Below are positions 4,513 to 29,832 of a stretch of 64,000 nucleotides of DNA, in pieces. Position numbers and translations under genes: made by a program. The first letter of the stretch is position 1. The number at the start of each line of letters is the position of its first letter. The stretch is taken from NCBI GenBank assembly GCA_038904395.1, contig JBCKKC010000002.1, forward strand, positions 14,285 through 78,284, in the 5' to 3' direction. The notes beneath the pieces are model-generated. The model had not been told where the DNA came from. It saw only the letters and a program-made list of their open reading frames with translations, and did not search any database. The stretch is from Acidimicrobiia bacterium. GTDB lineage: Bacteria; Actinomycetota; Acidimicrobiia; UBA2766.

Positions 4513-4630
4513 TTACCCACAGGTTTGTCCACAGCTGTGGATAACTCTTGGAGTTGTCAACACGTTCCCACACAGCCACTCACAGACGATTTACACAAGC
4601 TGTCCACATGACATCCACCGGTTTTCCACA
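4513..4630. promoter_or_regulatory. Cluster of at least six DnaA-box 9-mers upstream of crgA
   Basis: Two boxes are perfect: TTGTCCACA (4525-4533) and TGTGGATAA (4536-4544, the reverse complement of TTATCCACA). Four boxes have one mismatch: TTACCCACA (4513-4521), TTGTCAACA (4554-4562), CTGTCCACA (4600-4608) and TTTTCCACA (4622-4630). Confidence 0.6.
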
Positions 4631-4696
4631 CCCCAGAGTCCACGGCAAGCGAAAAGAGAGCAGGCTCCAAATAAGATCGTCACCATGCAAGGGCTC

Positions 4697-5002
4697 TTAC
4701 GAAACTGTCTCAGGCGCTTCTACTACCAGCACCATCTCTTCACGACAGTGTTTGGGAGGAGCAAATCCCTCAAAATCATCTTCTTCGTCGTCGGCCACCC
4801 GCGTCAACTTCACCTCTGTCGCGCAAACAATGCACCGAAAACGGAGGTCAAAGTTTTCCACATTCATGGTTTGACCTGAAGGTCCGTCTTCGAATGTTGC
4901 CCCAAGCATTGACAGAGTCACAATGCCGATTTTCCACAGCAAGAAGACAATCGCAATCGCGAGAAAAACTAAGATGTAGGGATGATCGCCAAGCCACTTC
5001 AC
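4697..5002 (-). CDS. Hypothetical small membrane protein with CxxC...HC motif
   Basis: The 101-aa ORF has an N-terminal TM helix (ILVFLAIAIVFLLWKIGIV) and an acidic C-terminal half carrying CIVC and HC. No family recognised. Competing plus-strand ORFs look non-coding. Confidence 0.45.
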   Translation of the reverse strand: MKWLGDHPYILVFLAIAIVFLLWKIGIVTLSMLGATFEDGPSGQTMNVENFDLRFRCIVCATEVKLTRVADDEEDDFEGFAPPKHCREEMVLVVEAPETVS

Positions 5003-9574: not shown

Positions 9575-9766
9575 AAATCAAACTGCCCGCATCGCTACGC
9601 TATTTCTTGCCACTGATTCGCTCTCGGTGGTCTTCGGCCTCGACACTGGGCCCTCAGTAGAATTACAGCGATGCCGACACAAACAAGCGCTCCCACCGCA
9701 ACACCAGCCCGTAGTAAGTACTTGCTCACATGCCACCAACTTGTTCTCATCGCAACGAGCAGCGCG

Positions 9767-14199: not shown

Positions 14200-14205
14200 A
14201 TCACA

Positions 14206-16236
14206 TCAAATATCCAAGAATCGGACGTCACTAGCGTTGGCACGAATGAACTCTTTTCTCACTTCAACATCGTCACCCATCAAGGTGGAGAAGATTTCGT
14301 CAGCGATTGCCGCATCATCAATCGTCACTTTTCGCAAAACCCTTGTTTCAGGATTCATAGTTGTCGACCACAGCTCTTCATAGTCCATCTCGCCCAGACC
14401 TTTGTATCGCTGAGCAGAAGGTAACTTCCTGTCAGCATGTTCGCCACGGAGCACCTCAAGCTCACGATCGCTGAAGAGATAGTGGATGTTGCGATCAATT
14501 CGTTGAGCAAACAGTGGCGGCTGGGCAGAATAAACGTAGCCAGCTTCAACAATTTGGGGCATGTAGCGGAAGAAAAATGTGAGTAAAAGTGTGCGGATGT
14601 GGGACCCGTCAACATCAGCATCGGCAAGGGTGATGATCTTGTGGTAGCGCACCTTGGACAAATCGAAGTCTTCGCCAATTCCAGCCCCGATCGCCGAGAT
14701 AAGCGACCGAACTTCGTTGTTGGCGAGGACCTTGTCGAGGCGTGATTTTTCGACGTTGAGAATCTTTCCCCTGATAGGCAAGATTGCCTGAATATCGCGC
14801 ACCCTTGCCTTGACTGCGGAACCACCCGCCGAATTACCCTCAACAATAAAAATTTCGCACTCATCAGCAACTGTCGATGTGCAATCAACCAGTTTACCCG
14901 GCAGCCCTCCGGCGTCCATAAGGCCCTTGCGGCGAGTAAGCTCACGTGCCTTACGGGCAGCTAGGCGACTTTGAGTCGCTAACTTACATTTCTCGATAAT
15001 GAGTTTTGCTTCACCCGGATGTGCTTCAAGCCAGTCCCCCAACAGTGAATTCATTGTGGTCTGGACAAAGCTTTTCATTTCGGTGTTGCCAAGCTTTGTC
15101 TTTGTCTGTCCCTCAAATTGTGGATTGGACAACTTCACGGACAAAATACCTGTCAAACCCTCTCGACAGTCTTCACCGGCAAAGTTCTCATCTTTAGGCT
15201 TCACCAAATTCGCTGCCTGAGAATATCGATTTATCGTGTTAGTCAGGGCCGCTCTGAAGCCCTCTTCATGCGTCCCACCCTCGTGCGTATTAATCGTGTT
15301 GGCGAAACTGAAAACTGACTCTTGATAAGTATGGTTCCACTGAAGCGCTATCTCGAGCTCTGCGATACCAGCACCGTCAAAGTCTTCCCGCTTGCCGGAA
15401 AGATAAATCATTGAAGATATGAGAGGCTCTTTTTTCGCATTTAGATGCTTAACAAAGTCTTGGATACCTCCTTCAAAATAGAAGTCGAAGACAGCTGGGG
15501 CTTCATCGTCAATTGTGGGACGCTCATCGACAAAGCGTAAACGAACGCCTCTGTTGAGGAAAGCAAGCTCACGTATTCGCCTTACCAAAATGTCGGAATC
15601 GTATTTCGTCGTCTCGAAGATTGTGTCATCAGGCCAGAATGTAACAGTCGTGCCGGTCAGATCAGTATCACCGACTCGTTGCAAAGGACCTGTCGAATGG
15701 CCACCATTTGCAAATTCCTGCCTAAACTCTCCACCATCACGAGCAACCTCTACCAGTAACCGTGATGACAAGGCATTGACAACTGAAACTCCCACACCAT
15801 GTAGTCCACCAGACACAGCATAGCTACCGCCACCAAACTTGCCACCCGCATGCAGAATCGTGAGAACTATCTCAACAGCACTGACACCGGGAAATTTCGG
15901 ATGCTCTTCTACAGGAATACCACGACCGTTGTCGCTGACTCGCACTCCACCATCGGCGAGAATCGTGACCTCAATCGTGTCGCAATATCCGGCCAACGCC
16001 TCGTCAATCGCGTTGTCGACGACCTCGTATACCAGGTGATGAAGCCCACGAGGGCCCGTGGATCCGATATACATGCCGGGCCGTTTGCGGACGGCTTCAA
16101 GACCCTCAATAACGTCAATATCGGAAGCTTCATAAAGGGATTTGTCGGGTGACTTTTCCGTGCCTTGTGCCTGCTTCGAGTTAGCCCCATCAGCGGCATC
16201 GGAGTCAGCTTCAGATCTTGTTTGAGAACCCGCCAT
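14206..16236 (-). CDS. gyrB: DNA gyrase subunit B
   Basis: GHKL ATPase, TOPRIM and tail motifs are present: GLEAVRKRPGMYIG, GLHGVG, EGDSAGG-like EGNSAGGS, and PLRGKILNVE-like PIRGKILNVE. The start is placed at the Met-24 ATG (16236). The ORF track start at 16305 is also possible. Confidence 0.93.
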   Translation of the reverse strand: MAGSQTRSEADSDAADGANSKQAQGTEKSPDKSLYEASDIDVIEGLEAVRKRPGMYIGSTGPRGLHHLVYEVVDNAIDEALAGYCDTIEVTILADGGVRVSDNGRGIPVEEHPKFPGVSAVEIVLTILHAGGKFGGGSYAVSGGLHGVGVSVVNALSSRLLVEVARDGGEFRQEFANGGHSTGPLQRVGDTDLTGTTVTFWPDDTIFETTKYDSDILVRRIRELAFLNRGVRLRFVDERPTIDDEAPAVFDFYFEGGIQDFVKHLNAKKEPLISSMIYLSGKREDFDGAGIAELEIALQWNHTYQESVFSFANTINTHEGGTHEEGFRAALTNTINRYSQAANLVKPKDENFAGEDCREGLTGILSVKLSNPQFEGQTKTKLGNTEMKSFVQTTMNSLLGDWLEAHPGEAKLIIEKCKLATQSRLAARKARELTRRKGLMDAGGLPGKLVDCTSTVADECEIFIVEGNSAGGSAVKARVRDIQAILPIRGKILNVEKSRLDKVLANNEVRSLISAIGAGIGEDFDLSKVRYHKIITLADADVDGSHIRTLLLTFFFRYMPQIVEAGYVYSAQPPLFAQRIDRNIHYLFSDRELEVLRGEHADRKLPSAQRYKGLGEMDYEELWSTTMNPETRVLRKVTIDDAAIADEIFSTLMGDDVEVRKEFIRANASDVRFLDI

Positions 16237-16440
16237 ATTTCTACTCACACCTAAAGTCTCTGGCGCCTTCAAAAAGGCACCCATGTTTGGCACCCGCCGC
16301 CCCAACCAAAAAAGAGTTAATCAAGCCCGCCATTGACAAGAAATTCGATTTAGTAGCCGCCGGCGAGATATCGCCTAGCGCCTCGATTACGTAAGGCTCA
16401 AGGATACCACAAGCACTCTAACGAAACGGGGCAAAACCCA

Positions 16441-16449
16441 TGTGGACAA
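16441..16449. promoter_or_regulatory. Isolated perfect DnaA box upstream of gyrB
   Basis: TGTGGACAA is the reverse complement of TTGTCCACA. It lies in the dciA-gyrB intergenic region. Confidence 0.35.
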
Positions 16450-16502
16450 AAGGAGAAGCCTCAACTCTTGTCAGCCACTAAGTGTGGGAAGCGGGCCCAT
16501 TC

Positions 16503-16823
16503 CTACAAGACCACAACGCCCTTGATGATGTCATCACCTAATGCCTCGTTGCATGTCAACCGAATCGCGTCGGTGGCATAGCGCAACCGAGTCGCACCTA
16601 CCGCATCAATGGCCCTGATCGTCAAGACACCGTCACGAATGCGGACAGGGGTACCCGAATCAGCAAGGTCTTTGCCAACCAGAGCCAGCCAAGGTTCTCT
16701 TGTGTCGAAACCGAGATCAAGAAAGACGTCAAAACCAGAGCTTCTTGTCCATCTTGTGATCAGGTCACCAAGAGCGACCAGGTCACGACGGCCCCGATAC
16801 GAATTCGAGCTCTCCTTAACCAC
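16503..16823 (-). CDS. dciA: DUF721 protein, DciA-type replicative helicase operator
   Basis: The 106-aa protein sits between recF and gyrB, as Rv0004 does. The DUF721-like pattern is W..LVG..LA..T.P..IRDGVLTI.A.....ATRLRY....I. Confidence 0.7.
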   Translation of the reverse strand: MVKESSNSYRGRRDLVALGDLITRWTRSSGFDVFLDLGFDTREPWLALVGKDLADSGTPVRIRDGVLTIRAIDAVGATRLRYATDAIRLTCNEALGDDIIKGVVVL

Positions 16824-16849
16824 TATCCCTCAGCTCCAAATGTAACTAT

Positions 16850-18046
16850 TCACTTACCACCGGCCTCGAGGCCAGGGGACCCGGGACTATCGTCAAATTG
16901 CATAGGGCCCGCGCCTCCCTCTGCCACAACAGATAGATCTCCAAACTCGCGTACGTGACTTACTAATAGCGCATCTTGCCCTGCTGTTCCAGTGGCTGAT
17001 ATCAAAGTTTGAGCTTTTGGGAGTCGTGATAGCAGAGCCATTCGTCGACTTTCATCTAGTTCAGACAAAACATCATCGAGTAAAAGAACGGGTTCCTCAC
17101 AAAGAATTCGCTCAAGAACTCGGAGTTGGGCCAGTTTAAGAGCGATAGCCAGCAAGCGCTGTTCGCCTTGAGATGCCCGTGTTCGAGCATCACGTTCGCC
17201 AATCGTAAGGTCAACATCGTCTCGGTGAACTCCTACAAGGGTCACACCACGGATCAGCTCGTCACTCAATCGCTGCTCCAAGGCATGTTTCAGTGCCGCC
17301 GACAAGTCGGGCTGGGAGATTTCTGGCGTTTCGGCCAGCATCGAATATTCAGAGCCTTCCCGAGATAGCCAGCTAGGCCAATAGCGCATAGAAACATCAT
17401 CGAGCGCAAGTTCTTTGGCGGCAAGTGTGAACTCGGGCGCAAGTAGTCTCACAGCTTGCATCCGCTCCATTGCCATCGACGTCGCCTTTTCAACCACTAG
17501 CTGCGTCCACGTGTCGAGAGCAGCTGACGCTCCAGTGGCACGACCCCGCAAAGAACGTAACAAGCTGTTGCGTTGGCGCAACACACGCTCCCATTCAGAA
17601 CGCACCTGCTGTGTTCGGGGGGCGAAAGACTGCATGGATTCGTCAATACAGTCTCTGCGTAAACCCGGTGCGCCTTTTATCAAATCAAGATCATCGGGCG
17701 AAAAAACGACTGTCCGGAGAAGGCCAAAGACGTCTTTACCCCTCTTGCGTTGCACACCATTGACTTCCATGAGACGACCGCCGCCGAGTGTCAGCGAAAT
17801 ACTAACATCACGATCCTGCCGGCTAAATTGCCCAGAAATCCGCGCTTTGTCTGACCCGAGCATCAACAGAGCATTGTCGTCGGACGCACGAAATGACCGA
17901 CCTGTGGAAAGCAAATATATTGCCTCTAGCAACGAAGTCTTACCGGCACCATTTGGCCCAGAAATTACAGTGACACCAGGGGCAAATTCAATCTCAGTCG
18001 AGCGATGATTGCGAAAGTTAATCAGCCCCAAACGCTTTATCTGCAC
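16850..18046 (-). CDS. recF: DNA replication and repair protein RecF
   Basis: RecF features include the N-terminal LINFRNH, Walker A GPNGAGKTSLLEA, the signature SQGEQR and Walker B LLLDDV. Confidence 0.93.
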   Translation of the reverse strand: MQIKRLGLINFRNHRSTEIEFAPGVTVISGPNGAGKTSLLEAIYLLSTGRSFRASDDNALLMLGSDKARISGQFSRQDRDVSISLTLGGGRLMEVNGVQRKRGKDVFGLLRTVVFSPDDLDLIKGAPGLRRDCIDESMQSFAPRTQQVRSEWERVLRQRNSLLRSLRGRATGASAALDTWTQLVVEKATSMAMERMQAVRLLAPEFTLAAKELALDDVSMRYWPSWLSREGSEYSMLAETPEISQPDLSAALKHALEQRLSDELIRGVTLVGVHRDDVDLTIGERDARTRASQGEQRLLAIALKLAQLRVLERILCEEPVLLLDDVLSELDESRRMALLSRLPKAQTLISATGTAGQDALLVSHVREFGDLSVVAEGGAGPMQFDDSPGSPGLEAGGK

Positions 18047-18057
18047 AGCTAGGGGCC

Positions 18058-19191
18058 CTATACCCGCACAGGCATCAACAAATACTGGTAAGAGTCTGAG
18101 TCCAGCTCACGGATCATTGCAGGCTTGAGAGGATCACTGGTCTCTATGAGAATGTGCTCACCTGAACAAGCTTCAATACCCTCACGCAGGTACGCAGGAT
18201 TGAAAGCTATCGTCATCGGCTCTCCCGAGTAGTCGCCCTCAATTTCCTCATCTGCTTCCCCACTCAATTCTGGATCGACGGCTAACAAGCGAATTTCACC
18301 GTCACTCAATGAGAGTCTGACAGGAGTCGAATCACGAGCGAGTAGAGCTACTCTGCGCAACGCATCCAACAAGACATCTCTTCCAACTTCGAGACGATTC
18401 GCAAAGTGCTCCGGAATTAGCTGGTTGTAGCTGGGGAAACTGCCATCAATGAGCAATGCAGTTATGGTCGTGTCACCAATGCGAAAGGCAATGCGCTTGT
18501 CGTCAATGCCAACACCCACAACAGGGTCAGTTTCATTTGGAGGAATCAATCGGGCCAGTTCCACTAAAGCTTTCGCCGGCAACAGTGCGGAATCGTTCGT
18601 TCCTAGAAACGAGTTAATCCCCATATCACGTAATGCCAAGCGGTAAGAATCGGTGGCAACGAATCGGATCCCGTCCTCTCCTGATGACAAGAGTACGCCG
18701 GTGAGGACAGGCCGCGTGCGATCAGAGGTCGCAGCGATAACCGTTTGATCTATCGCCTCAACTATTGCCCCGGGAACTAGATCAACAAATGGTGATTCCA
18801 CCACTGGAAGAGTTGGGAAATCATCTCGCGAATAGGTCCGCAATGAGAATCGACTCTTCCCAGTGGATATTCGAGCTAGCCCATCGTTATCCACAACGAT
18901 ATCCACAAGGCCAGAAGGCAACGAACGGACGATATCTCCGAACAACCGGTGCAAAACGGTTTCGCCAGGAGCCGACACTTCCGCCGTGAGAGAAGTCTCA
19001 ATAGCCAACTCACCATCGGTTGCACTAAGGATGACCTGGCCATCTGTCGTAGTTCTCAGCAAAACTCCCGATAGCGCCGCAAGAGTAGCTTTAGCTGGAG
19101 CTGCTCTGAATGCGATTGTTAGCTTGTCATTCAGCGTGTCCTTGTCACAACGAAAGGCCAACGCCGCCTCTGAGTGAGTTAAGATATCCAC
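18058..19191 (-). CDS. dnaN: DNA polymerase III beta sliding clamp
   Basis: The 377-aa protein is a three-domain beta clamp ending in YLLMPVRV. It uses a GTG start, and position and length are canonical. Confidence 0.93.
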   Translation of the reverse strand: MDILTHSEAALAFRCDKDTLNDKLTIAFRAAPAKATLAALSGVLLRTTTDGQVILSATDGELAIETSLTAEVSAPGETVLHRLFGDIVRSLPSGLVDIVVDNDGLARISTGKSRFSLRTYSRDDFPTLPVVESPFVDLVPGAIVEAIDQTVIAATSDRTRPVLTGVLLSSGEDGIRFVATDSYRLALRDMGINSFLGTNDSALLPAKALVELARLIPPNETDPVVGVGIDDKRIAFRIGDTTITALLIDGSFPSYNQLIPEHFANRLEVGRDVLLDALRRVALLARDSTPVRLSLSDGEIRLLAVDPELSGEADEEIEGDYSGEPMTIAFNPAYLREGIEACSGEHILIETSDPLKPAMIRELDSDSYQYLLMPVRV

Positions 19192-19339
19192 AGGTTTTCT
19201 CCCCTACTGATTTTTGTTTATATATAACTGGTGGTGGTAGTGGGGCCTGTTGATATGTGGATAACTTGCTGCCGTGCTGGCCCGGCCCCATTTATGATCT
19301 CTAAGATGTTCGCGCAGGCTGTGGACGAGTTGTGGACAC
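19184..19339. promoter_or_regulatory. Candidate oriC core in the dnaA-dnaN spacer
   Basis: Four DnaA boxes are present: ATATCCACA (19184-19192, over the dnaN GTG), TGTGGATAA (19256-19264, perfect), TGTGGACGA (19320-19328) and TGTGGACAC (19331-19339). An AT-rich stretch, ATTTTTGTTTATATATAA (19210-19227, 17 of 18 A/T), could be the unwinding element. Confidence 0.6.
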
Positions 19340-19346
19340 ATTGTGA

Positions 19347-20810
19347 CTAACCCAACTTGATCGTGTTTGCTAGTTCGTTGACCTGTTGAAGAAGCTGCCT
19401 ACGCTCGTGCATAAGTTGTTCAACCTTTCGTTGTGCGTGTAAAACGGTGGTGTGGTCGCGACCGCCAAAAATTTCACCGATACGAGGCAGCGACAGTTCC
19501 GTCAGCTCTCTGTGTAGGTACATAGCCACCTGCCGAGCATTGACGAGGGGGCGACGACGACTTGGGCCGAGTATGTCTTCAATCGAGATTTTGTAGTAGT
19601 CAGATGTCTCGTGCAGTATCAATTCCGATGTCACCTGCCGACGCCCGGCGTCACCAATGCCTGCGAGCAGATCTTCTGCCCGGCTAAGTGAAATTGGAAC
19701 GCCTTCCAACTTCGCGTAGGCAGCGATTCTGTTCAGAGCTCCCTCGAGAGCCCGAATGTTGTCAGAAATTCGAGTGGCGATGAATTCGATCACCTCGCCT
19801 GGTACAGACAAGAGCGATCTTTCCGCCTTATTTCGCAAGATTGCGATCCTCGTTTCGAGATCAGGTGGTTGGACATCTGTCATAAGGCCCATCTCAAAGC
19901 GAGAACGCAAGCGGTCCTCGAGAGCGGAAATTTCTTTTGGTGGGCGATCCGAAGCGATCACAATTTGGCGATTTGATTGGTGCAAACTGTTGAATGTGTG
20001 GAAAAACTCATTCTGAGTCTCAATCTTCCCGGCCAGAAACTGAATGTCGTCAATAAGTAAAATATCGGTGGCACGATACCGATCACGAAACGCAGTACGC
20101 CGATCAGCTCGAATCATTTCGATGAACTCGTTGGTGAACTGCTCGCTTGACGTATAGGTGGCACGCAGGTTAGATGTCGTCCATATATAGTTGACGATTG
20201 CATGCAGCATGTGGGTCTTGCCAAGACCCGTGCCGCCCCAGATAAAGAGGGGGTTATATCCGGTAGCTGGGCTCTCAGCTACAGCCAATGCTGCGGCGTG
20301 AGCGAATCGATTTGATTCACCAATGATGAAGTTATCGAAGGTATTCGTTGGGACAACCTTGGCTGCATTGCGACTATTCGGCGTGGCGCCGGTAGAAAGG
20401 GATTGTTGCATGTCTTGCTGTGAGGTGTTTAGTGTCGAGTTGTCCTTTTCGTGGTGTGCTGAGGCAGTGTTTGCAAACCCAAGTTGGTCAAGCGGTCCAG
20501 CATTGGGTCCTATTGGGTCCTCAGTTGGATCTGGCTGGGCCAAATCGCGCTCAGGAGTAGTGACAACTAACGAGAAGCTGAGTTGTCGTCCGGCAGCGTC
20601 TGAGATGGCAGAACCAACGTGTGGCCGGTAGCGACTTTCGATGCTTTGCTTGAACAAGTCCGCTGGGACAGAGAGAGCTAGATTGTCATCATTGATGTCC
20701 AAGGGTTCAACAGCAGAAAACCATGCCCTCCATGCTGGATCTCCGAGCTCAAGTCGGAGGGAATCTGATGCAGCATCCCAAACTGATCTTGCTGCCGCTG
20801 AGTCAACCAC
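19347..20810 (-). CDS. dnaA: Chromosomal replication initiator DnaA
   Basis: The AAA+ domain carries Walker A GGTGLGKTHML, Walker B LLIDDIQF and sensor motifs. The C-terminal domain IV HTH contains DHTTVLHA. Confidence 0.95.
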   Translation of the reverse strand: MVDSAAARSVWDAASDSLRLELGDPAWRAWFSAVEPLDINDDNLALSVPADLFKQSIESRYRPHVGSAISDAAGRQLSFSLVVTTPERDLAQPDPTEDPIGPNAGPLDQLGFANTASAHHEKDNSTLNTSQQDMQQSLSTGATPNSRNAAKVVPTNTFDNFIIGESNRFAHAAALAVAESPATGYNPLFIWGGTGLGKTHMLHAIVNYIWTTSNLRATYTSSEQFTNEFIEMIRADRRTAFRDRYRATDILLIDDIQFLAGKIETQNEFFHTFNSLHQSNRQIVIASDRPPKEISALEDRLRSRFEMGLMTDVQPPDLETRIAILRNKAERSLLSVPGEVIEFIATRISDNIRALEGALNRIAAYAKLEGVPISLSRAEDLLAGIGDAGRRQVTSELILHETSDYYKISIEDILGPSRRRPLVNARQVAMYLHRELTELSLPRIGEIFGGRDHTTVLHAQRKVEQLMHERRQLLQQVNELANTIKLG

Positions 20811-20872
20811 TGAGTTAGTTCCCCTCTTTTACCTAATAGTGTGAGGGCCTCTCACTTTGCACGTACACAGAA

Positions 20873-21108
20873 TTATCCACAGCTGTGGATAGCCTAGTGA
20901 CTCTGGGTTGAGAACACCTAGCCGGTAGCCGAGGATATCGCAAGTTACAGTGCCGAGTTGGATCAAAATAGCAGGATAGGCCACATCTGGCAATAGGCGG
21001 CCGGACAAATCCGTCCCCTGGTTGGTGAATCTGCTGCTAGTCGATGGTGCGGTCGAGGATGCACAGCTAAATTTCATAAAGGGATACGCTGTGAAGGCCT
21101 GTGGATAA
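20873..21108. promoter_or_regulatory. DnaA boxes in the rpmH-dnaA divergent promoter region
   Basis: A convergent box pair, TTATCCACAGCTGTGGATAG, spans 20873-20892. A perfect TGTGGATAA lies at 21100-21108. Confidence 0.55.
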
Positions 21109-21346
21109 CGATCCGGATTTATTTCTCTCCGAATGGAAAGTTGCCCTTTTCTGGCAACATTGCTTACCGGTACTGCTACTGTTTTTGGGATAGCTTGACT
21201 ACTACTGAGCACAATGGTCTAGCTCTTCGGTGGACTCGTAGGGGTTGGCCGGAATTGCTTTGGTGAGATCCTAACCTGGCCATGAAGTATTTTTGTGTGA
21301 CTGCTAGCGCTGGACTTTGCTGGCAGGTATCTTTGCGGAGAATTGT

Positions 21347-21481
21347 ATGAAAAGAACGTATCAACCCAACAACCGTCGGCGGCACAAGAAGCATGGCTTC
21401 CGCAAGCGGATGCAAACTCAATCTGGGCGAGCGGTGTTGGCCGAGCGTCGACGCAAAGGTCGTCACCGTTTGAGCGTATAG
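21347..21481 (+). CDS. rpmH: 50S ribosomal protein L34
   Basis: This gene is absent from the ORF track because it is under 60 aa. Hand translation gives [44 protein letters not shown], a canonical L34. Confidence 0.9.
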
Positions 21482-21530
21482 TCATTGGGTTTGGCTATTT
21501 CGGCTCAGGAATTGGCGTCTATCTTGCGCA

Positions 21531-22151: not shown

Positions 22152-23201
22152 ATGTTTTTTAGCAGCATTCTGGCGGCTTCAACGAATCCAATTGAAATTA
22201 TTTTTGGCGCAATTGAGCGGGGCCTTGGCTCGGCACTTGCTGGAATCTATGCGGTCATACCGTCATACGGTTTTGCCCTCATCCTCTTAACAATTGGAAT
22301 TCGCCTCGTACTTTTCCCCATCTATGCCAAGTCGACCAAATCGATGCGCAAGATGCAGCAACTTCAACCGCACATGAAGAAGCTGCAGGCTAAGTACAAG
22401 GACGATCGAGCTCGCCTTAGCCAAGAGCAGATGGCGCTTTTCAAGGCTAACAAGGTGAGTCCGATTTCGGGATGTTTGCCTCTCATCCTCCAGATGCCGA
22501 TCCTGTTTGCAATGTTTCGCGTGATTGGCGGACATGCCCAGAAGACAGCTAAAGGTGCTGTTTCTATCTCGTTCATTCCTTCTGGCTCCTCTCTGTATAA
22601 GGCTCTCATAGGGTCGACACTCGCTACGCCGACTGCGGCGGCAATATTTCTTGGCATGAACCTTGGAGCATCACCCCTGGACGCGATCACTTCTCCGGCA
22701 GTTCCCATCTACTTGAAGATTCCATACGTGCTAACGATTGCAGCAATTGTGGCCACTGGTTGGTATCAGCAGAAGCAGATCCAGGCAAAGAAGGTCCCGG
22801 GAGCTCCGGAAATGCCTCAGGCAATGCAATCTGTGACGAAGATCATGCCAATCTTCTTTGGCGTTCTGTCCCTAACTTTGCCTACCGGCGTGAATGTCTA
22901 CTTTCTCACTTCTAACTTGTTCCAAATTGGACAGCAATATCTCATGTTTCGGAACAGAGGCGGCGCCGACGATGTCGTTATTCCGACTGCTGAACAAAAG
23001 CAGCAAATAGCACAAAAGCGGATGTCTAGGACATCACCTGTCTCTAAAGATACCAATACCACCTCTGGTGCCAAGTCGGAGTCCAAGGGCGCTATTGATG
23101 GACCTAAAGCCCAAAACAGGAAGCGGGTGCCCCAGAAGGTGCAGCCTGGCAGCAAAACGGCCAAGCCAAAGCGTGATGATGAAAATGACCGCGGCAAGTG
23201 A
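22152..23201 (+). CDS. yidC: Membrane protein insertase YidC
   Basis: The polytopic protein carries conserved YidC/Oxa1 core motifs (MRKMQ.LQP....LQ.KYKDD, P..GCLP.L.Q.PI). A basic C-terminal tail follows. Confidence 0.9.
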   Translation: MFFSSILAASTNPIEIIFGAIERGLGSALAGIYAVIPSYGFALILLTIGIRLVLFPIYAKSTKSMRKMQQLQPHMKKLQAKYKDDRARLSQEQMALFKANKVSPISGCLPLILQMPILFAMFRVIGGHAQKTAKGAVSISFIPSGSSLYKALIGSTLATPTAAAIFLGMNLGASPLDAITSPAVPIYLKIPYVLTIAAIVATGWYQQKQIQAKKVPGAPEMPQAMQSVTKIMPIFFGVLSLTLPTGVNVYFLTSNLFQIGQQYLMFRNRGGADDVVIPTAEQKQQIAQKRMSRTSPVSKDTNTTSGAKSESKGAIDGPKAQNRKRVPQKVQPGSKTAKPKRDDENDRGK

Positions 23202-23355
23202 ATTACAATCGTCGGATACGACATGGCTGATTCTTGAGGGAAAATCGAATCCCGCAAGGATTGGCACGATGCCACTTGGTGAAATATCTAGGAGACCGAT
23301 GGTGGCCGCAATGTCTCCACAAGGTTTAGCACACGAGAAGTAAGAGGATAGACGA

Positions 23356-24042
23356 ATGACTGGATGGCAAGAAGTTCAAGGAACCGATCGCGAGGCTGCC
23401 CTGTCTGAGGCAGTTCGTATCTTAGGAGTTGCACAAGACGATCTCGAAATCGGCGATCTCCCCGCTGATGGCGAGGGCGTCAGGCTAATTGTCAGGCGAC
23501 GCGATGAGAGTGATGACGTATCGGCTGCAGATGAGGAAATCATCTTCGAAGATGGCTCCAGTGATGACAGTCCTGAGCTAGACCAGGCCTTGCTTGCGTC
23601 GCAGCAGGAAGTAGTCCTTGACTTTATTGAGGAATTGCTTGAGTCGTTCGACCTCGAGGGTGAGATTGCCGCGGAGTTCAACGACACGGTCCTCTATGTT
23701 GATATCAATGGGGACGATCTTGGATCTCTGATTGGTCGGCGTGGCAGCACCCTGGCTGCTCTGGCGGAAATTACTAAGACTGTTGTGCAACGCCGCACGG
23801 CAGCTCGGGTCAGATTGCACTTAGATGTACAGGGATACCGAGCCCGACGCCGTGAAGCACTTGAGAAGTATGCGATGAAGCTATCAAATGATGTATCTCG
23901 GACCGGAGTCGAAAAGGCTCTCGAGCCTATGCCCGCTTCTGAGCGCAAGATTGTTCACGATGCTGTCGCTCGTGTCGATGGAGTCCGTAGCTATTCCGAA
24001 GGCAACGAGCCTAAAAGAAATGTTGTCATCGGTCCCTCGTAA
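23356..24042 (+). CDS. jag: Jag/KhpB RNA-binding protein (KH + R3H domains)
   Basis: The KH-like segment reads GSLIGRRGSTLAAL. The R3H-like C-terminus reads PMPASERKIVHDAV...V.SYSEG.EP.R.VVI. Position after yidC is canonical. Confidence 0.85.
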   Translation: MTGWQEVQGTDREAALSEAVRILGVAQDDLEIGDLPADGEGVRLIVRRRDESDDVSAADEEIIFEDGSSDDSPELDQALLASQQEVVLDFIEELLESFDLEGEIAAEFNDTVLYVDINGDDLGSLIGRRGSTLAALAEITKTVVQRRTAARVRLHLDVQGYRARRREALEKYAMKLSNDVSRTGVEKALEPMPASERKIVHDAVARVDGVRSYSEGNEPKRNVVIGPS

Positions 24043-24064
24043 GGTAACCGGGTCACATCCCCAG

Positions 24065-24237
24065 CCGTCATTGCGAGGAAAGCGAGTAATCATTCACGTC
24101 CCCACGGGCCCGAGCGGTGCTGCCAGGCTATTCGTCATTGCGAGGAGCCGCTCTGGGCGACGAAGCAACCTAGTCCGTGACTTATGCCACGAAAACGCAA
24201 GTCGCCGATTAGCTGGCCTCGCTGCGCTCGCAATGAC
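24065..24237. repeat. Family-A palindromic element, composite copy with duplicated left terminus
   Basis: CCGTCATTGCGAG occurs at 24065 and CGTCATTGCGAG again at 24133. The inner arm AAGCAACCTAGTCCGTGAC is present, and the right terminus CTCGCAATGAC lies at 24227-24237. The second inner arm is degenerate. Confidence 0.75.
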
Positions 24238-24286
24238 AGGGTGGGGAACGTAAATGGTTACGTCGTTGTTGAAATTCGACGGTGAG

Positions 24287-24302
24287 TGTTTCACATGAAA
24301 CA
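24287..24302. promoter_or_regulatory. parS centromere-like site
   Basis: TGTTTCACATGAAACA matches the 16-bp parS consensus TGTTTCACGTGAAACA at 15 of 16 positions. It overlaps the rsmG start codon, about 0.7 kb upstream of parA. Confidence 0.7.
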
Positions 24303-24888
24303 TCTGACGCAGATCGCCGAATATGTGACGTTGCTGGATGAAGCCAATCAACGCATCAACTTGGTGTCCCGTAAGCTCACGAGCGAACAAATATTAGAGC
24401 TTGCCGCTACCTTCTCTGACGCTTTGGAAGTCGCTGACGTAGCCCCAGAGGGCCGATTGCTTGACGTTGGATCGGGGGGCGGACTGCCGGGTATACCCCT
24501 AGCGATTCGCTATCCAAAGCTGCGAGTCTTTCTCAATGAATCACGCAAGCTGCGCGTAATCGAATTGAGGCAGTTTGTCGCACAACTGGGACTCAAGAAT
24601 GCGCAAGTTTTAGAAGGGCGAATCGAGACTCTACACCAAGAAGCGCAATCGATTTCTCCGAATATTGTGACGGCATTTGGAGTTGCTAAAGCTGACGTTG
24701 TAATGGATATCGTGTGTCCGTTGCTGGCAGACAACGGGGTTGCGCTTCTGTCCATTCCTGCCGAGCCGACGAAGGAACAGATCGCTGTTTGGGTGTTGCG
24801 TGCGGCCATGCACGAGTGTTCAGCCAACATTGTCGAAAGAGAACTTGCGGGGGGACGGAAGCTGCTTCGCTTGCACAAGTCTGGCTAG
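24295..24888 (+). CDS. rsmG: 16S rRNA (guanine527-N7)-methyltransferase RsmG
   Basis: The SAM-binding motif is LLDVGSGGGLPGIPLAI. Position between jag and parA is canonical. The start is ATG at 24295, or GTG at 24286 as in the ORF track. Confidence 0.88.
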   Translation: MKHLTQIAEYVTLLDEANQRINLVSRKLTSEQILELAATFSDALEVADVAPEGRLLDVGSGGGLPGIPLAIRYPKLRVFLNESRKLRVIELRQFVAQLGLKNAQVLEGRIETLHQEAQSISPNIVTAFGVAKADVVMDIVCPLLADNGVALLSIPAEPTKEQIAVWVLRAAMHECSANIVERELAGGRKLLRLHKSG

Positions 24889-24988
24889 GTTAACTTGCTT
24901 TGATGTCTTGCAAAGTGGGGCTGTGGGGATACTATTGCGGCATCGTCCAGTCGTGTGATGCGTCAGGTGTGCAATAGGCGAGGTTGCG

Positions 24989-25804
24989 ATGGTGCTTGGA
25001 GGAGAAAGCTCTGCTACCCATGAGGACTTCGGTCTTTCACCAGGGTTAGGGCGGGTTATTGCAGTGGCCAACCAAAAGGGTGGGGTTGGCAAGACCACAA
25101 CTGTCGTGAATTTGGCTTGTGCGTTGGCGGCTCAAGGGGCCAAGACACTGGTGATTGATCTGGATCCTCAGGCGAACGCCACGACGGGTCTAGGTATCGA
25201 CAAGATGTCGCTGAGTAAAAGTAGTTATGATCTTGTTGCTTCAGGCGCCACGTTGGAGGACGTAATTTGCGAGACGTCGCTGGCGGGAATTCATGCGGTA
25301 GGGGCCACTTTTGATCTTGCTGGTGCTGAGGTTGAGCTGATGCCGATGCTGGCCCGCGAAACAGTGCTGCGTAAGGCTCTTGACAGGGCAACAGAGCGTT
25401 TTGATTATGTGTTCATTGATTGTCCTCCGAGCCTAGGTCTGCTCACAATCAACGCTCTGGTTGCGGCAGATTCCGTCCTAACGCCAATTCAATGCGAGTA
25501 CTACGCTCTCGAAGGGCTGAGCGCGCTGTTATCGAATATCGAGATCATTCGTGGAGCTCTCAATCCATCGCTGGGCATAGCCGGTTTTCTCTTGACAATG
25601 TTCGATGCCAGGACGAAACTGGCTGCACAGGTGGTGCACGAAGTTCGAGACCATTTTCCTGACCAGACTTTCCGGACGGTCATTCCCCGCAGCGTGCGCC
25701 TCTCAGAAGCTCCCAGTTACGGATTGCCGATAGAGGTGTATGCCCCTTTGTCATCCGGTGCTACCGCATACAGACTCCTGGCAGAGGAGATTAGTCATGA
25801 GTAG
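24989..25804 (+). CDS. parA: Chromosome partitioning ATPase ParA (Soj)
   Basis: The deviant Walker A is present as KGGVGKTT (within IAVANQKGGVGKTTT). Further matches are DLDPQANAT and IDCPPSLGLLT. Confidence 0.9.
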   Translation: MVLGGESSATHEDFGLSPGLGRVIAVANQKGGVGKTTTVVNLACALAAQGAKTLVIDLDPQANATTGLGIDKMSLSKSSYDLVASGATLEDVICETSLAGIHAVGATFDLAGAEVELMPMLARETVLRKALDRATERFDYVFIDCPPSLGLLTINALVAADSVLTPIQCEYYALEGLSALLSNIEIIRGALNPSLGIAGFLLTMFDARTKLAAQVVHEVRDHFPDQTFRTVIPRSVRLSEAPSYGLPIEVYAPLSSGATAYRLLAEEISHE

Positions 25805-26675
25805 TCCTCCGGTTGATTCTCCGGTTCGTTCGGGTGGCTTAGGGAGGGGCCTGTCTTCCTTGCTGGCTATTTCTCCGCAGGGTTTTTCTCAGATCAGTAT
25901 TGCAACAGTTAGACCAAACCCGCGCCAACCGCGTAAGACATTCGACCCCGAAAAGATTGAGATGTTGGCGGAATCCATCCGCCGGTTTGGGGTGTTACAA
26001 CCGGTTTTGGTGCGCAAAGACGGAGACCAGTTTGAACTGGTTGCAGGTGAACGGCGGCTTCGAGCTGCTCAAATTGCTGGCCTGACCACTATTCCGGCGG
26101 TTGTTAAGGAAGTGACAGACTCGGACAGTTTAGAGCAGGCGCTCATCGAGAACGTGCAGAGGCATGACCTCAACGCACTCGAAGAGGCAGCTGCGTTTAA
26201 CCAATTGATAGAAGATTTTGGTCTCACCCATGCAGAAGTTGGGCGGTCGGTGGGCAGAAGCCGCACAGCTGTAACCAATACTTTACGCCTGCTCGCTTTG
26301 CCGGTCAGGCTGCAGGAAATGTTGGTATCAGAGTCGATCACGGCAGGACACGCTCGAGCTCTAGTAGCGATTGAAGATCCAGACGAGCAAGTTGCCCTTG
26401 CCTTGCGAACCGTTTCCCAAGGCCTTAGTGTGCGCCAGGTTGAGGCGTTGGTGGCTCAAAGGAGTGGCGGAGAAGTCGATGACAGCGGGCGGTCGCCGGA
26501 TAGAAACAGTGCCCAGACGGCGCTGTTTGACATATCTGAAGTGTTGGGAGAGTATCTGAACACGTCCGTATTCATAAAAGCTGGACGTGGGTCGGGCAAA
26601 ATGATAGTTGAGTTTGCATCTTTGGATGACCTTGAGCGTATTGCGGAGATGATCATAAGGGCCCCCGGGCCTTAG
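25797..26675 (+). CDS. parB: Chromosome partitioning protein ParB (Spo0J)
   Basis: The ParB box GERRLRAA and an HTH (LTHAEVGRSVGRSRTAVTNTLRLL) are present. The start is set at the ATG overlapping the parA stop (ATGA at 25797-25804). Confidence 0.9.
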   Translation: MSSPPVDSPVRSGGLGRGLSSLLAISPQGFSQISIATVRPNPRQPRKTFDPEKIEMLAESIRRFGVLQPVLVRKDGDQFELVAGERRLRAAQIAGLTTIPAVVKEVTDSDSLEQALIENVQRHDLNALEEAAAFNQLIEDFGLTHAEVGRSVGRSRTAVTNTLRLLALPVRLQEMLVSESITAGHARALVAIEDPDEQVALALRTVSQGLSVRQVEALVAQRSGGEVDDSGRSPDRNSAQTALFDISEVLGEYLNTSVFIKAGRGSGKMIVEFASLDDLERIAEMIIRAPGP

Positions 26676-26727
26676 GGTCGGACACTGTGGACGACCAGTC
26701 CGTGGGGGCGAACGGGGTCCTTCCGTA

Positions 26728-27351
26728 TTGGGCGGGGCTGGATACGATCAAGACATCAGGTTGAGAGGACTGGTTCGGGTGAAGGCAGAGACGATCCGGC
26801 TAACTGCTGACATCATGGGGGACCTCCCGTTTGCCTTGCGGCCGAGTCCGTGGCGTGAAGGAGTGCCAGCTGGCCAGATGGTTGCACGGGTATTTAACGG
26901 GCCGGGCGGTATGGGGTTTGCCAAGAAAATTGACGGCGAATTCGTTGGCGCCGTTGTGGGAGGTGTGCTGACAAAGGGAGCCGAGAGTCGACCTAATCAG
27001 CGAATTGCATTGAAGCTGGTGTCTCTAACGACAGTAGATCTCGGTGCTTCCCAGCAGTTGATCGCCTCAGACTTGCTGCTAAGCCTTGTAGAAGGGGCCA
27101 GGGTAAAGAGATTCAAAGCAGTTGACGCTCTCGGCGATCGGCGCTCGACCCCTGAATCGGGGGCACTTCCCATGGAGTTTCTGCTCAAGCACGGATTCCG
27201 GCCGATTAGATGGCGTCCTCGGTACCCCACCTGTCGCCTTGACATTGGTTCCGTTGCCTTCGTTGAAGATATCATGCGACTCTTTGAGAAATTCCGAGCC
27301 AGCCTGCGTGAGCCCGAATTGAGGCCCGGATGGCCGATCTCTGGCAGATAG
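26728..27351 (+). CDS. Hypothetical protein, weak GNAT-like features
   Basis: The ORF has coding-like composition. The segment LLLSLVEGARVKRFKAVDALG......P.EFLLKHGFR loosely resembles a GNAT C-terminal half, but no firm motif is seen. The start is uncertain. Confidence 0.4.
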   Translation: MGGAGYDQDIRLRGLVRVKAETIRLTADIMGDLPFALRPSPWREGVPAGQMVARVFNGPGGMGFAKKIDGEFVGAVVGGVLTKGAESRPNQRIALKLVSLTTVDLGASQQLIASDLLLSLVEGARVKRFKAVDALGDRRSTPESGALPMEFLLKHGFRPIRWRPRYPTCRLDIGSVAFVEDIMRLFEKFRASLREPELRPGWPISGR

Positions 27352-27454
27352 TTCCTAGGTCTGGTTGTTCCTGATCCGGGGCAAACCACGCTTGCGCAAC
27401 AGCGGACTAGAGCTGACCCAGGTTAGCGAACGCCTGCAAGCTGGAAAAATGGGT

Positions 27455-27581
27455 ATGAACCGGGTTGGCAGACAGGTCGTGAACCGGCGGTGGTATGGGT
27501 GCTGTAGTGGCCGATGGTTGTTGGTGGATGGTGTGAGTCCGGTGGACTGGGTGCAGGACAGCTCGTGAACCGTCGGTGGAC
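27455..27581 (+). repeat. Upstream array of the RTGAACC / CGGYCGGTGRAC-like motif
   Basis: Three motif copies lie on the plus strand: ATGAACC (27455-27461), GTGAACC (27479-27485) and GTGAACC (27565-27571). The last two are extended as GTGAACCGGCGGTGG and GTGAACCGTCGGTGG. Confidence 0.5.
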
Positions 27582-27694
27582 CTGCTGGGCCGCAGGTGGG
27601 TGGGCATGGCGACTTTTCGTTTCGTCGCCGGATATATTGTCTCACTAAGGCGGCCATTGTCGCTGGACTGACAAAATGGCATGGGAGTATTTTT

Positions 27695-28372
27695 ATGACG
27701 ATGGAGTTACCGGCTCCTGGCGGTACAGTTCCGAGTCAGCGAATTCACCTCACGCGGGTACCTGACGCATCGGGCACGACTGTGACTTTGGCAGATGCTG
27801 CCGAGAAGTATGGGGTATCGCGCTCGACCCTGAAGCGTAGGCTTGCCGATGGAGAGATTCAGGGTGCGCATAAACTGCCGGGCCCCAGAGGTGACGAATG
27901 GCACCTGCCTGTGGCTGCTCTTGAAGCGCTGGGATACCGGCCCGGCCAAGAACTAGATGGGTCAGCGACGGATCATGAACCGGCCCAGGACCAGGATGAC
28001 TCGGGTCAGAGTCTGTTTGTGCTGGTAGATCTTGTGACAGATTTAACCCGTGACCTACGTCAGGAAAGAGAGACCAGACGGCTCGAGCTCATGGCCGCAA
28101 ATGAGGAACACTTCAAGACGGTTCGAGATCGAGAGAATACTCTTATTGACTTAACCCGAACTGAAGAGAGGCTCCATGTCGCTCTTTCACAAAAAGATGA
28201 GCTTGAAGCGAGGTTGCAATCCGAGACTGCTGAGCGTGAACGACTCCGGGTTGAGTCTGAATTGCTGGGCCAGCGAGTTGGTGATCTTACATCGCAACTT
28301 CAAACTCAATCCGGTTCATGGTGGCGGCGGAATCGTCGAATGGCAAAACCGCCGCTTTCGAAACCCGAATAG
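27695..28372 (+). CDS. Excisionase/MerR-type HTH DNA-binding protein with long C-terminal coiled coil
   Basis: The HTH-like segment is VTLADAAEKYGVSRSTLKRRLADGEI. About 100 aa of heptad-like, charged sequence follows (RQERETRRLELMAANEE...ELEARLQSETAERERLRVESELLGQRV). The ATG at 27695 has a GGGAG 7 nt upstream. Confidence 0.6.
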   Translation: MTMELPAPGGTVPSQRIHLTRVPDASGTTVTLADAAEKYGVSRSTLKRRLADGEIQGAHKLPGPRGDEWHLPVAALEALGYRPGQELDGSATDHEPAQDQDDSGQSLFVLVDLVTDLTRDLRQERETRRLELMAANEEHFKTVRDRENTLIDLTRTEERLHVALSQKDELEARLQSETAERERLRVESELLGQRVGDLTSQLQTQSGSWWRRNRRMAKPPLSKPE

Positions 28373-28448
28373 AAGGCGACAGACTCGAGTCGAGGACGTC
28401 GGGGCCTTTCTGGGGCTGGATCTGTAGTGGCCGGGATGACCTGGCTCA

Positions 28449-28713
28449 ATGAACCACCATGGTCCGGCGGTGAACCATGGTGAGAATTGCGCTCTGGATC
28501 TGGGGCAGTGCTGACCTGAGAAGTGCCGGGCAGTTCGGAGAAGTCGCTGTTGATAACCACTTTGTAGGTCTCGACAGTCTGTCCGGCATATCGGAGTCAT
28601 CCACGAAAGTTAGAACGATCCTGACTAACCAGTGAACCAGCGGGTAACCATCTTGAACGGTCGGTGAACCCGGCGAGAGCTACCAAGTAGCCACCTTGAA
28701 CGGTCGGTGAAAC
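28449..28713 (+). repeat. Downstream array of the RTGAACC / CGGYCGGTGRAC motif, including a 17-bp perfect direct repeat
   Basis: Motif copies are ATGAACC (28449), GTGAACC (28470, 28632, 28664) and GTGAAAC (28707). CTTGAACGGTCGGTGAA is repeated exactly at 28652-28668 and 28695-28711, a 43-bp period. Confidence 0.55.
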
Positions 28714-28728
28714 TAGGCGATGAGCCCT

Positions 28729-29832
28729 CTAGCTGGACCTTGGGCCGTCGTCAGACAATCCACGAAAAAACGTATCGAGGGCGCTGGCACAGGCAGATGA
28801 CATTAAACCAATGGCCTGGCGAAAATTGGTCTCATGCTGGCCATCGACTGAATTTAGGCCCAAACAGACGTCGAGAACTACCGCCACAGAGCGAGTTTCA
28901 CGCAGGATAGGTTGGGCAGCGGCTTCAATGGATTCTGTTTCCCACCCAATAGCGGAAGAACAATTCTGGCTAACTAGTGATGCGAGATCTTGCCCTGCGC
29001 TCGACTGATATCGAGGACGGCCGAAATACTTGCAGCGCAACCCAGTTCCTTCTTGAGCTTGGCTTATGGCGATACTCAAGACCACATCAGGAGCAAACCA
29101 ATTGGCGAGACCTGCACGCTCACTGTCAGACGGGTTTGTGTCAGCCGAACGTGAGAGCAGGGTGTTGACTCCCTTGTTTCGGAGTTGGCCTGCTAGGTCT
29201 AGGGCGAAGGCAAAGCTTAACCCTGCTGACTCGCTTGCGGGCTCAGGCAGCAAAACTGTGCTGATGCTTTGGCCACCACTGGGGTCAATGAAGATACGTC
29301 GACCACTTAAACCGGAAGGTCCAGACTCCAGCATTAAACGCTCTCGCATGGTCGGATTAGGCGGACCGGCAGGAGCTCGGTCGAAACGAGCAAGCATGGC
29401 GATCACATCAGTGCCGGCGATTCCATCGATGGGTAAACCGCAGTTACGTTGAAATTCGGACACTGCGCGTCGTGCGCTTGGGCCAAAAATGCCATCGACC
29501 TTGCCAAGATCGAAACCTAGGTTAGCGAGGCGTTCTTGCAGCTCGGCAATGTCATCGCCTCGCATCCATGGCAGTCGCTCATATAAGACCCGATCGCCTA
29601 GCTGCCAACCAGCCTCGGTAAGGGTATCCCAAGTCAACGAATCGATGATTCCATTTGGTGTTAGACTGCGACTCGCTTGGAAGGCCTTGACCGCGCCGAG
29701 TGTCGCTGCGCCAAAGCGTTCTGGAGGATCAGACGGGGAGGGAAAACCAATGGCGTGCAACCTGTCACGAATATCTACGACAGACAATCCGGAATCGCCT
29801 TCTCGAATGGGTGAGAAAATTGTCTGTGACAT
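28729..29832 (-). CDS. cwlM: CwlM-like N-acetylmuramoyl-L-alanine amidase with two peptidoglycan-binding domains
   Basis: Two PG_binding_1-like repeats are present (V.D....L...GF......FG..T..AVK.FQ). A C-terminal Amidase_3-like domain follows. Position next to trxA and trxB matches mycobacteria. Confidence 0.8.
   Translation of the reverse strand: MSQTIFSPIREGDSGLSVVDIRDRLHAIGFPSPSDPPERFGAATLGAVKAFQASRSLTPNGIIDSLTWDTLTEAGWQLGDRVLYERLPWMRGDDIAELQERLANLGFDLGKVDGIFGPSARRAVSEFQRNCGLPIDGIAGTDVIAMLARFDRAPAGPPNPTMRERLMLESGPSGLSGRRIFIDPSGGQSISTVLLPEPASESAGLSFAFALDLAGQLRNKGVNTLLSRSADTNPSDSERAGLANWFAPDVVLSIAISQAQEGTGLRCKYFGRPRYQSSAGQDLASLVSQNCSSAIGWETESIEAAAQPILRETRSVAVVLDVCLGLNSVDGQHETNFRQAIGLMSSACASALDTFFRGLSDDGPRSS

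Follow-up and report, generated by a model that had tools for sequence, protein, structure and literature searches.

The window analyzed here is a 64,000-nt stretch of the genome of an Acidimicrobiia bacterium (contig JBCKKC010000002.1), which, according to its gene content and GC skew, is a chromosomal origin region of the actinobacterial type. Past parB, on the plus strand, it carries a gene (27695–28372; hereafter the HTH gene) for a 225-amino acid (a.a.) protein in which a winged helix-turn-helix (HTH) domain is followed by a very long helix. The gene lies between two non-coding spacers, one of 343 nt upstream (27352–27694) and one of 356 nt downstream (28373–28728), and both contain arrays of short words related to GTGAAC. 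The arrays are read as a DNA-level feature, i.e., one short word in many copies on a single strand and a single face of the helix, because the RNA of the spacers folds no better than shuffled sequence and because the copies show strand bias and helical phase. The most likely binder of these arrays, which we propose tentatively, is the enclosed protein itself.

Phased repeat arrays around the HTH gene

The first-pass annotation of this locus had called attention to the heptamer RTGAACC, and the positions it gave are correct. The word occurs on the plus strand at 27455, 27479, 27565, 28449, 28470, 28632, and 28664, accompanied by GTGAAAC at 28707, by 12-mers at 27570, 28464, and 28658, and by an exact 17-nt repeat, CTTGAACGGTCGGTGAA, at 28652 and 28695 (43 bp apart). 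Over the whole window RTGAACC is not enriched (21 copies vs. 17 ± 3.8 expected). Rather, it is clustered, with 8 of its 14 plus-strand copies falling inside 27455–28670 vs. 0.27 expected. The excess claimed for the spacers is real: TGAACC is found seven times in their combined 699 nt, always on the plus strand, against an expectation of 0.15 (Poisson p ~3e–10), and GTGAACC five times against 0.025.

A further property, absent from that annotation, is helical phasing. GTGAAC-like words recur with a best period of 10.7–10.8 bp; in the downstream spacer the power observed at 10.7 bp was reached by 0 of 500 shuffles, and in the upstream spacer the power at 10.8 bp was reached by 14 of 500. The upstream array (27455–27582, plus strand) consists of ATGAACC at 27455, GTGAACC at 27479, GTGGTAT at 27490, GTGGAT at 27524, GTGGAC at 27542, GTGAACC at 27565, and GTGGACC at 27576, and it includes a plus-strand 23-nt repeat, GACAGsTCGTGAACCGkCGGTGG, beginning at 27471 and 27557 (27471–27493 and 27557–27579; 91% identical, 86 bp apart). 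The downstream array forms two plus-strand blocks. In block 1 (28449–28476), ATGAACC, (ATGGTCC), and GTGAACC follow one another at 10–11 nt spacing. In block 2 (28632–28713), seven of eight consecutive slots of ~10.7 nt are filled, by GTGAACC (28632), GTAACC (28644), TTGAAC (28653), GTGAACC (28664) and, after one empty slot, GTAGCC (28687), TTGAAC (28696), and GTGAAAC (28707); this block also contains a 25-nt repeat at 28644–28668 and 28687–28711 (92% identical, 43 bp apart). Across the arrays the units pair as 17-mers of the form TGAAC-n6-TGRAC (27566–27582, 28654–28670, and 28697–28713), with looser versions at 27480–27496 and 28450–28476. The units share a strand and are separated by one turn of the helix, and their blocks stand on both sides of the gene. 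As to geometry, this supports the proposed protein-binding array.

Two copies of the motif that the annotation did not mention lie within the HTH gene, at 27975 (plus strand) and 28313 (minus strand). The former (TCATGAACCGG, 27973–27983) lies within 27967–27989, where the 23-nt repeat recurs a third time in weaker form, and the latter (CCGGTTCATG, 28311–28320) is the perfect inverse of 27974–27983. The two therefore constitute a perfect 10-nt inverted pair, CATGAACCGG and CCGGTTCATG, of which the second arm (28307–28319) also pairs at 92% with the first upstream unit (27455–27467). The HTH gene is in addition bracketed by an exact 12-nt direct repeat on the plus strand, CTGTAGTGGCCG, at 27502–27513 and 28422–28433 (920 bp apart). 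This pair is of borderline significance, with an estimated ~0.01 such matches expected between the two spacers, and it could be an old insertion junction.

The spacers themselves contain nothing that resembles a gene or a structured RNA. Hidden genes were rejected, as every open reading frame (ORF) in both spacers scores as non-coding, unlike the HTH gene and the preceding ORF207, whose codon usage is coding-like. A structured RNA or riboswitch was likewise rejected, given fold z-scores against shuffles of –0.48 for the upstream spacer and –1.38 and –0.83 for the downstream spacer, and no match in Rfam. Nor is one spacer a duplicate of the other: their best local alignment is a 20-mer whose score was reached by 11 of 300 shuffles. 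In the upstream spacer, TATATT (27633–27638, plus strand) may serve as the –10 element of the HTH gene and GGGAG (27684–27688, plus strand), 6 nt before the ATG, as its ribosome-binding site, both being picked out by eye; a consensus scan did not find a strong sigma-70 promoter near 27633–27638. The translation-initiation region of a distant homologue, L096 (~1800–1820; gggaggaatattttt, just before the start), resembles that of the HTH gene (27680–27697; gggagtatttttATG).

The enclosed protein and its homologues

The earlier description of the enclosed protein, as an excisionase-type HTH joined to a coiled coil, holds: the match to HTH_17 is weak, and AlphaFold predicts a winged HTH plus a helix. 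From its N-terminus, the protein has an arm (ELPxxGxT...R), the winged HTH (residues 29–78), a disordered linker, one uninterrupted helix (residues 103–216, ~114 residues) modeled with a pLDDT (predicted local distance difference test score) above 95, and the tail SWWRRNRR. With the domain alone, Foldseek aligns it best, in terms of probability and TM-score, to BldC in complex with DNA (6amk_B; probability 1.00, TM-score 0.70, root-mean-square deviation 2.7 Å) and to the Xis of mycobacteriophage Pukovnik (4j2n_C; probability 0.99, TM-score 0.71, 31% identity), with E-values no better than 0.05–0.1 for so small a domain. A structural search with the full model returns RacA (5i44; probability 0.84, TM-score 0.52), and PHROG excisionase families match weakly (E ~1e–4).

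No significant sequence match to the protein was found in the PDB, NCBIfam, phages, plasmids, or IMG/VR, and word-index searches for relatives gave almost nothing beyond the protein itself. Exhaustive searching with HMMER, on the other hand, recovered 296 clusters at E ≤ 1e–3 and 59 at E ≤ 1e–10. In the family alignment the N-terminal arm is conserved (ELPxxGxT...R.PDxSGT), as is an HTH with a long wing (VSxxTLRRRL...GAHKxPGPKGEEWRIP); a variable linker is next, after which the helix opens with a conserved L..L...L..ER..L.AAE and the protein closes in a tail of the RRRWWxR type. This family of ~300 sequence clusters appears to be unnamed in Pfam, NCBIfam, and the literature searched.

Thirty-three homologous loci from metagenomes were examined, with homologues 35–47% identical to the window protein. 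In ~18 of the 33, a tyrosine recombinase gene lies immediately upstream on the same strand, and in L092 a serine recombinase gene occupies this position. Some of the loci (L104, L098, L111, and L108) are on terminally redundant contigs of 4.7–4.95 kb, probably circles, which carry a tyrosine recombinase, the HTH homologue, a pentapeptide-repeat protein, and a weakly Rep-like winged-HTH protein, and which look like a small, undescribed type of element in high-GC aquatic Actinobacteria. Further loci carry Prim-Pol or AAA_25 genes, and one homologue (P0004) has a weak NCBIfam match to rep_pAB02_ORF2 (E = 0.004), far below the cut-off. The closest full-length homologues (L087, 47% identical, and L088) stand alone among ordinary genes, with short flanks and no arrays. 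A trustworthy upstream motif shared among the homologues was not found. GTGACCA repeats in L102, L107, L108, and L111 were discounted, as they lie within a probable N-terminal coding extension (repeated S/G-DQPA). In L091 (4120–4216) and L089 (420–516), whose homologue comes closest in the HTH domain (57–60% identity), two copies of an 18-nt direct repeat, 42 bp apart, lie in the spacer between int and the HTH gene, and immediately ahead of the start codon this spacer has two copies of GGGGTAT at a distance of 12 bp; the repeat sequence differs from that of the window, and the layout is similar.

The window itself shows no recombinase-like sequence or integrase remnant by tblastn. A phage or plasmid origin was rejected, as tblastn gave no match among 50,697 phage and 72,556 plasmid records and IMG/VR contains no relative. 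The 16-mer TTGAACGGTCGGTGAA gave 10 single matches in these phage, plasmid, and IMG/VR records, which by a rough estimate is about chance level.

The origin region and the parB/cwlM junction

The minus strand carries gyrA, gyrB, recF, dnaN, and dnaA (11692–20810) and the plus strand yidC, jag/khpB, rsmG, parA, and parB (22152–26675), and the minimum of the cumulative GC skew lies at ~18–19 kb. Directly past the stop codon of parB (25797–26675, plus strand; P0154, 292 a.a.) begins the block of ORF207 and the HTH gene, followed by a convergent cwlM-like gene (28729–29832, minus strand; PG_binding_1 and Amidase_3 domains), whose 3′ end adjoins the downstream spacer, and by trxA, trxB, a Ser/Thr kinase gene, murJ, and a DUF6049 gene. 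ORF207 (26728–27351, plus strand; coding score 0.104) has no assigned function and no family match in Pfam, NCBIfam, or PHROGs, and no homologue of it was found beside the HTH homologues checked for this (L087 and L088). The HTH gene lies 0.7 kb beyond parB, at a distance of 3.2 kb from the sole parS-like site and of ~7 kb from dnaA.

In relatives, different genes occupy the position past parB. In the Acidimicrobiia-type relatives L114–L117, trxB directly follows parB, and in L118 a gene-free gap of 1.3 kb does so, with a perfect parS palindrome inside it (9717–9736). In L130, parB abuts cwlM-trxA-trxB, in L132 a PD40 protein gene lies between, and in L131 three unrelated genes do. Neither ORF207 nor the HTH gene is present past parB in any relative examined (L114–L119 and L130–L132). 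Because the cargo of this junction differs among relatives, ORF207, the HTH gene, and the arrays (26676–28728) are a lineage-specific insert at a variable spot and not a conserved partner of ParAB, and the parB-cwlM/trxB junction appears to be an insertion hot spot beside the origin. The nearest ParB among 5.8 billion proteins, from Acidimicrobiia-labelled metagenome-assembled genomes, is 55% identical, so no close relative is available for aligning the intergenic DNA; a contig search with ParB led to relatives of ≤45% identity only.

A few other features of the region may be recorded. The single near-consensus parS of the window (GTTTCACATGAAAC) lies at 24288–24301, at the 5′ end of rsmG. The dnaA-dnaN gap (19192–19346, 155 bp) has three DnaA boxes, including a pair at 11 nt spacing, and two boxes are in the rpmH-side gap upstream of dnaA (20811–21530, ~720 bp). 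In an 820-bp gene-free gap between sortase and thiolase genes, ~15 kb from dnaA, seven sites with at most one mismatch to TTGTCCACA lie within 4520–4940, five of them inside 110 bp, and these may be a secondary DnaA-binding cluster. The dnaB gene (50964–52766) contains an intein (Intein_splicing domain, residues 402–536).

Candidate occupants of the arrays

BldC, lambda Xis, and RdfS oligomerize head-to-tail on same-strand repeats, with one turn of DNA between protomers (PMC5859096; PMC11963761), which is why the enclosed protein is considered the most likely binder. The one-turn, same-strand geometry measured here is that of a BldC, Xis, or RdfS substrate, so that the DNA side fits head-to-tail binding. 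We suggest, as a plausible but far from settled account, that both arrays are coated by the protein, whose long helix would connect protomers or the two filaments and whose complex with the DNA would regulate the gene that encodes it. Each helical turn would take up one monomer, loaded head-to-tail onto the GTGAAC/TGRAC units of the same strand. Through pairing or bundling of protomers by the 114-residue helix, filaments on 27455–27582 and on 28449–28476 plus 28632–28713 could be held together, with the HTH gene looped out and repressed within a single compact nucleoprotein complex. The module would be of mobile-element ancestry, its protein being akin to recombinase-associated proteins of the recombination-directionality-factor kind, and it would have been inserted at the variable parB/cwlM junction without becoming a conserved part of the ParABS machinery. 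There is precedent for the layout, as in parC, tubC, and the KfrA operator direct-repeat blocks are split around the promoter or gene of the binder, which coats them and autoregulates (PMC5016525; PMC7783346).

Several points weigh against this account. The protein scores 23.4 bits against HTH_17 (PF12728), below the 27-bit gathering cut-off that the homologues L087 (30.3 bits) and L108 (30.1 bits) pass. The larger protein may bind in another way than BldC and Xis, which are small monomers and have no coiled coil. The first-pass annotation had expected the HTH gene to occur together with flanking arrays in relatives, and this is not borne out: GTTCAC-type arrays or dimers are near the gene in none of the 33 loci, whose homologues are admittedly only 35–47% identical, and neither comparable repeat arrays nor long spacers are present in the flanks checked (L087, L088, and L091). 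The recognition helix VSxxTLRRRL is conserved family-wide, yet the flanking DNA of the homologues shares no motif. The core motif is, furthermore, that of a known response-regulator box (PMC6754071).

The last match raises a different candidate, in our judgment unlikely but to be taken seriously, namely that an OmpR/PhoB-family response regulator of the PhoP/PolR type uses the arrays as operators. It would bind head-to-tail to 11-nt units (GTTCACC) of the minus strand and would either control the HTH gene or promote leftward transcription, antisense or of a small RNA. The consensus of Streptomyces PhoP is an 11-nt unit with the core GTTCACC (PMC4415409), and that of Microlunatus PolR is GTTCACnnnnnGTTCaC (PMC6754071). 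Read on the minus strand, the window's tandem 11-nt units have the identical core hexamer and spacing, GTTCAC-n5-GTTCAC, an equivalence that the first-pass annotation lacked; their 10–11 nt spacing fits PHO boxes, and OmpR-family regulators likewise bind head-to-tail at 11-nt spacing. The minus strand reads GTCCACcgacgGTTCAC at 27565–27581 and GTTCACcgaccGTTCAA at 28653–28669, each with one mismatch to GTTCACnnnnnGTTCAC. These two dimers are the only matches with at most one mismatch in 64 kb, several others have two or three, and 10 of the 58 matches with up to three mismatches fall in the array region, all on the minus strand. However, the window holds no phosphate-related gene, no pho/pst (Pho-regulon) gene, and no response regulator, and downstream of both arrays the minus strand is free of coding-like ORFs. 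One array is flanked by convergent genes, and an operator of at least 15 units, distributed over both spacers of a single small gene, would be unusually large. It would also have to be a coincidence that the operator flanks the gene of a DNA-binding protein that is itself another direct-repeat binder. The consensus used is that of Streptomyces and Microlunatus and may not be that of the host, a deep lineage whose ParB is 55% identical to its nearest relative. We regard it as very improbable that the repeats are bound by nothing specific, having arisen by local duplication or slippage, or that they act at the RNA level in the untranslated regions (UTRs) of the HTH mRNA. The 23–25 nt repeats do show that local duplication took place, and, given long UTRs, the transcript of the gene would include every copy. 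Duplication alone, though, leaves unexplained a 10.7–10.8 bp phase over more than 250 bp and the divergent flanks around a constant core, and the folds are no better than those of shuffles (z = –0.5, –1.4, and –0.8), with no Rfam match.

The remaining alternatives concern the history and purpose of the block. It is improbable, in view of the intact HTH gene with its normal codon usage and the lack of any recombinase remnant in the window (tblastn), that the block is the decaying remnant of a small integrative element, its repeats being former arm-type or directionality-factor sites with no present function and the 12-nt repeat CTGTAGTGGCCG marking the old junctions. The homologues downstream of a tyrosine recombinase (~18 of 33 loci) or a serine recombinase (L092), those on probably circular 4.7–4.95 kb contigs, the different cargo at the parB/cwlM junction of different relatives, and the exact 12-nt repeat that brackets the gene all speak for such an origin. 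Most units, though, fall outside the 12-nt repeats, and the conservation of the arrays (17 nt exact, 23 nt at 91%, and 25 nt at 92%), in phase, points to selection or to a very recent origin. A centromere-like or tethering device, in which the coiled coil and the basic-aromatic tail attach origin-proximal DNA to ParB/ParA, the membrane, or a polar factor, is a doubtful reading that we rate low. It draws on a three-part architecture as in RacA, Par, and RocS (AlphaFold model; RacA 5i44 at probability 0.84; PMC11500499), on the position near parB, the parS-like site, and dnaA, and on the well-known centromeres made of split direct-repeat blocks (PMC5016525). Against it, the gene is not conserved here in any relative examined, mobile elements carry most of the family members, the protein has neither DUF536 nor a MinD-like amphipathic helix, RacA binds palindromes as a symmetric dimer rather than direct repeats (PMC5859096), and the 64 kb contain a single cluster in place of a dispersed set of sites. 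The accessory role in segregation or nucleoid organization that the first-pass annotation had proposed is not supported: the argument for it is the position beside parAB, the gene is not conserved there in the relatives examined, and its homologues are mostly recombinase-linked. That the protein helps to segregate the chromosome is correspondingly doubtful. A bolder proposal is that a domesticated, Xis-like winged HTH combined with a coiled coil and an Arg/Trp tail forms a single-protein device, independent of any nucleoside triphosphatase, that coats phased blocks and tethers or organizes the origin as an actinobacterial analogue of RacA, pSK1 Par, or RocS, with the same family serving as maintenance for small circular int-bearing elements; this, too, we consider improbable.

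Sites of other DNA-binding proteins do not account for the arrays. That they are not a known parS, as first stated, is confirmed: the 16-bp parS palindrome tGTTTCACGTGAAACa is absent from them, the one half-site-like GTGAAAC has no inverted partner, and parS or ParB half-sites were rejected, as the sole near-consensus parS is at 24288. DnaA boxes were rejected too, as the GTGGAC/GTGGAT units match 5–6 of 9 positions and no match with at most one mismatch lies in the arrays; the DnaA-box clusters sit at 4520–4640 and 19256–19339. An extracytoplasmic function (ECF) sigma factor –35 element (GGAAC-n16/17-CGT) was dismissed because, by eye, CGT is at the right distance in one of the seven TGAACC copies, and the MtrA box (GTGACC-n5-GTkAC; PMC5650626) because its half-site differs by one base in length. 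The iteron- or centromere-like layout suggested earlier survives in its binding-array geometry, and fails as a set of 17–22 bp iterons with a Rep initiator and an AT-rich unwinding region: the window protein matches no Rep family and no marked AT-rich stretch was found.

The likeness of the module to BldC, Xis, and RdfS lies in the fold of residues 29–78, the matches to PHROG excisionase families, the recombinase-linked homologues, and the same-strand, one-turn repeats. Xis and RdfS are small single-domain proteins. BldC likewise has only 68 residues (PMC5859096), in contrast to the 225 a.a., the 114-residue helix, and the conserved basic-aromatic tail of the window protein. Moreover, BldC prefers AT-rich sites, whereas the window repeats are GC-rich GTGAAC units, and excisionases have a cognate adjacent recombinase and att sites, whereas the window has no recombinase; ~18 of the 33 homologous loci do have one. 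As at the par locus of pSK1, the repeated sites lie beside the protein's own gene. The DNA-positioning proteins RacA of B. subtilis, pSK1 Par, and RocS of S. pneumoniae have a MerR-type winged HTH, a coiled coil, and a C-terminal tail (PMC11500499), and resemble the window protein in this; its origin-proximal location beside parAB is a further similarity. They have no detectable sequence relationship with it, DUF536 and the MinD-like helix were not found (Pfam, E ≤ 0.01), and RacA recognizes GC-rich palindromes as a symmetric dimer in place of the direct repeats seen here. With parC (of R1 and pSK41), tubC, and the KfrA operator, the locus has in common short direct-repeat blocks split around the promoter or gene of a binder that coats them cooperatively and autoregulates (PMC5016525; PMC7783346), and with KfrA itself an HTH followed by a very long helix. 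In contrast to parC and tubC, the window has no cognate ParM (actin-like) or TubZ (tubulin-like) gene, its ParA pairs with ParB, and the locus is chromosomal; ParR is a ribbon-helix-helix protein and TubR a different winged HTH. The module is nearest to BldC/Xis/RdfS in working terms, and its protein is nearest to RacA/Par/RocS/KfrA in architecture.

None of these readings overturns a known mechanism. If a PhoP-type regulator binds the arrays instead, the partition genes would have beside them a phosphate-controlled operator of unusual size. If the enclosed protein binds them, the head-to-tail mode of Xis and BldC, with one protomer per turn of DNA, would extend to a larger, coiled-coil protein, and recombination directionality factors would be linked to DNA-organizing proteins of the RacA/Par/RocS/KfrA type. 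The finding would also define an unnamed family of ~300 clusters that is common in aquatic Actinobacteria and in their small integrative elements.

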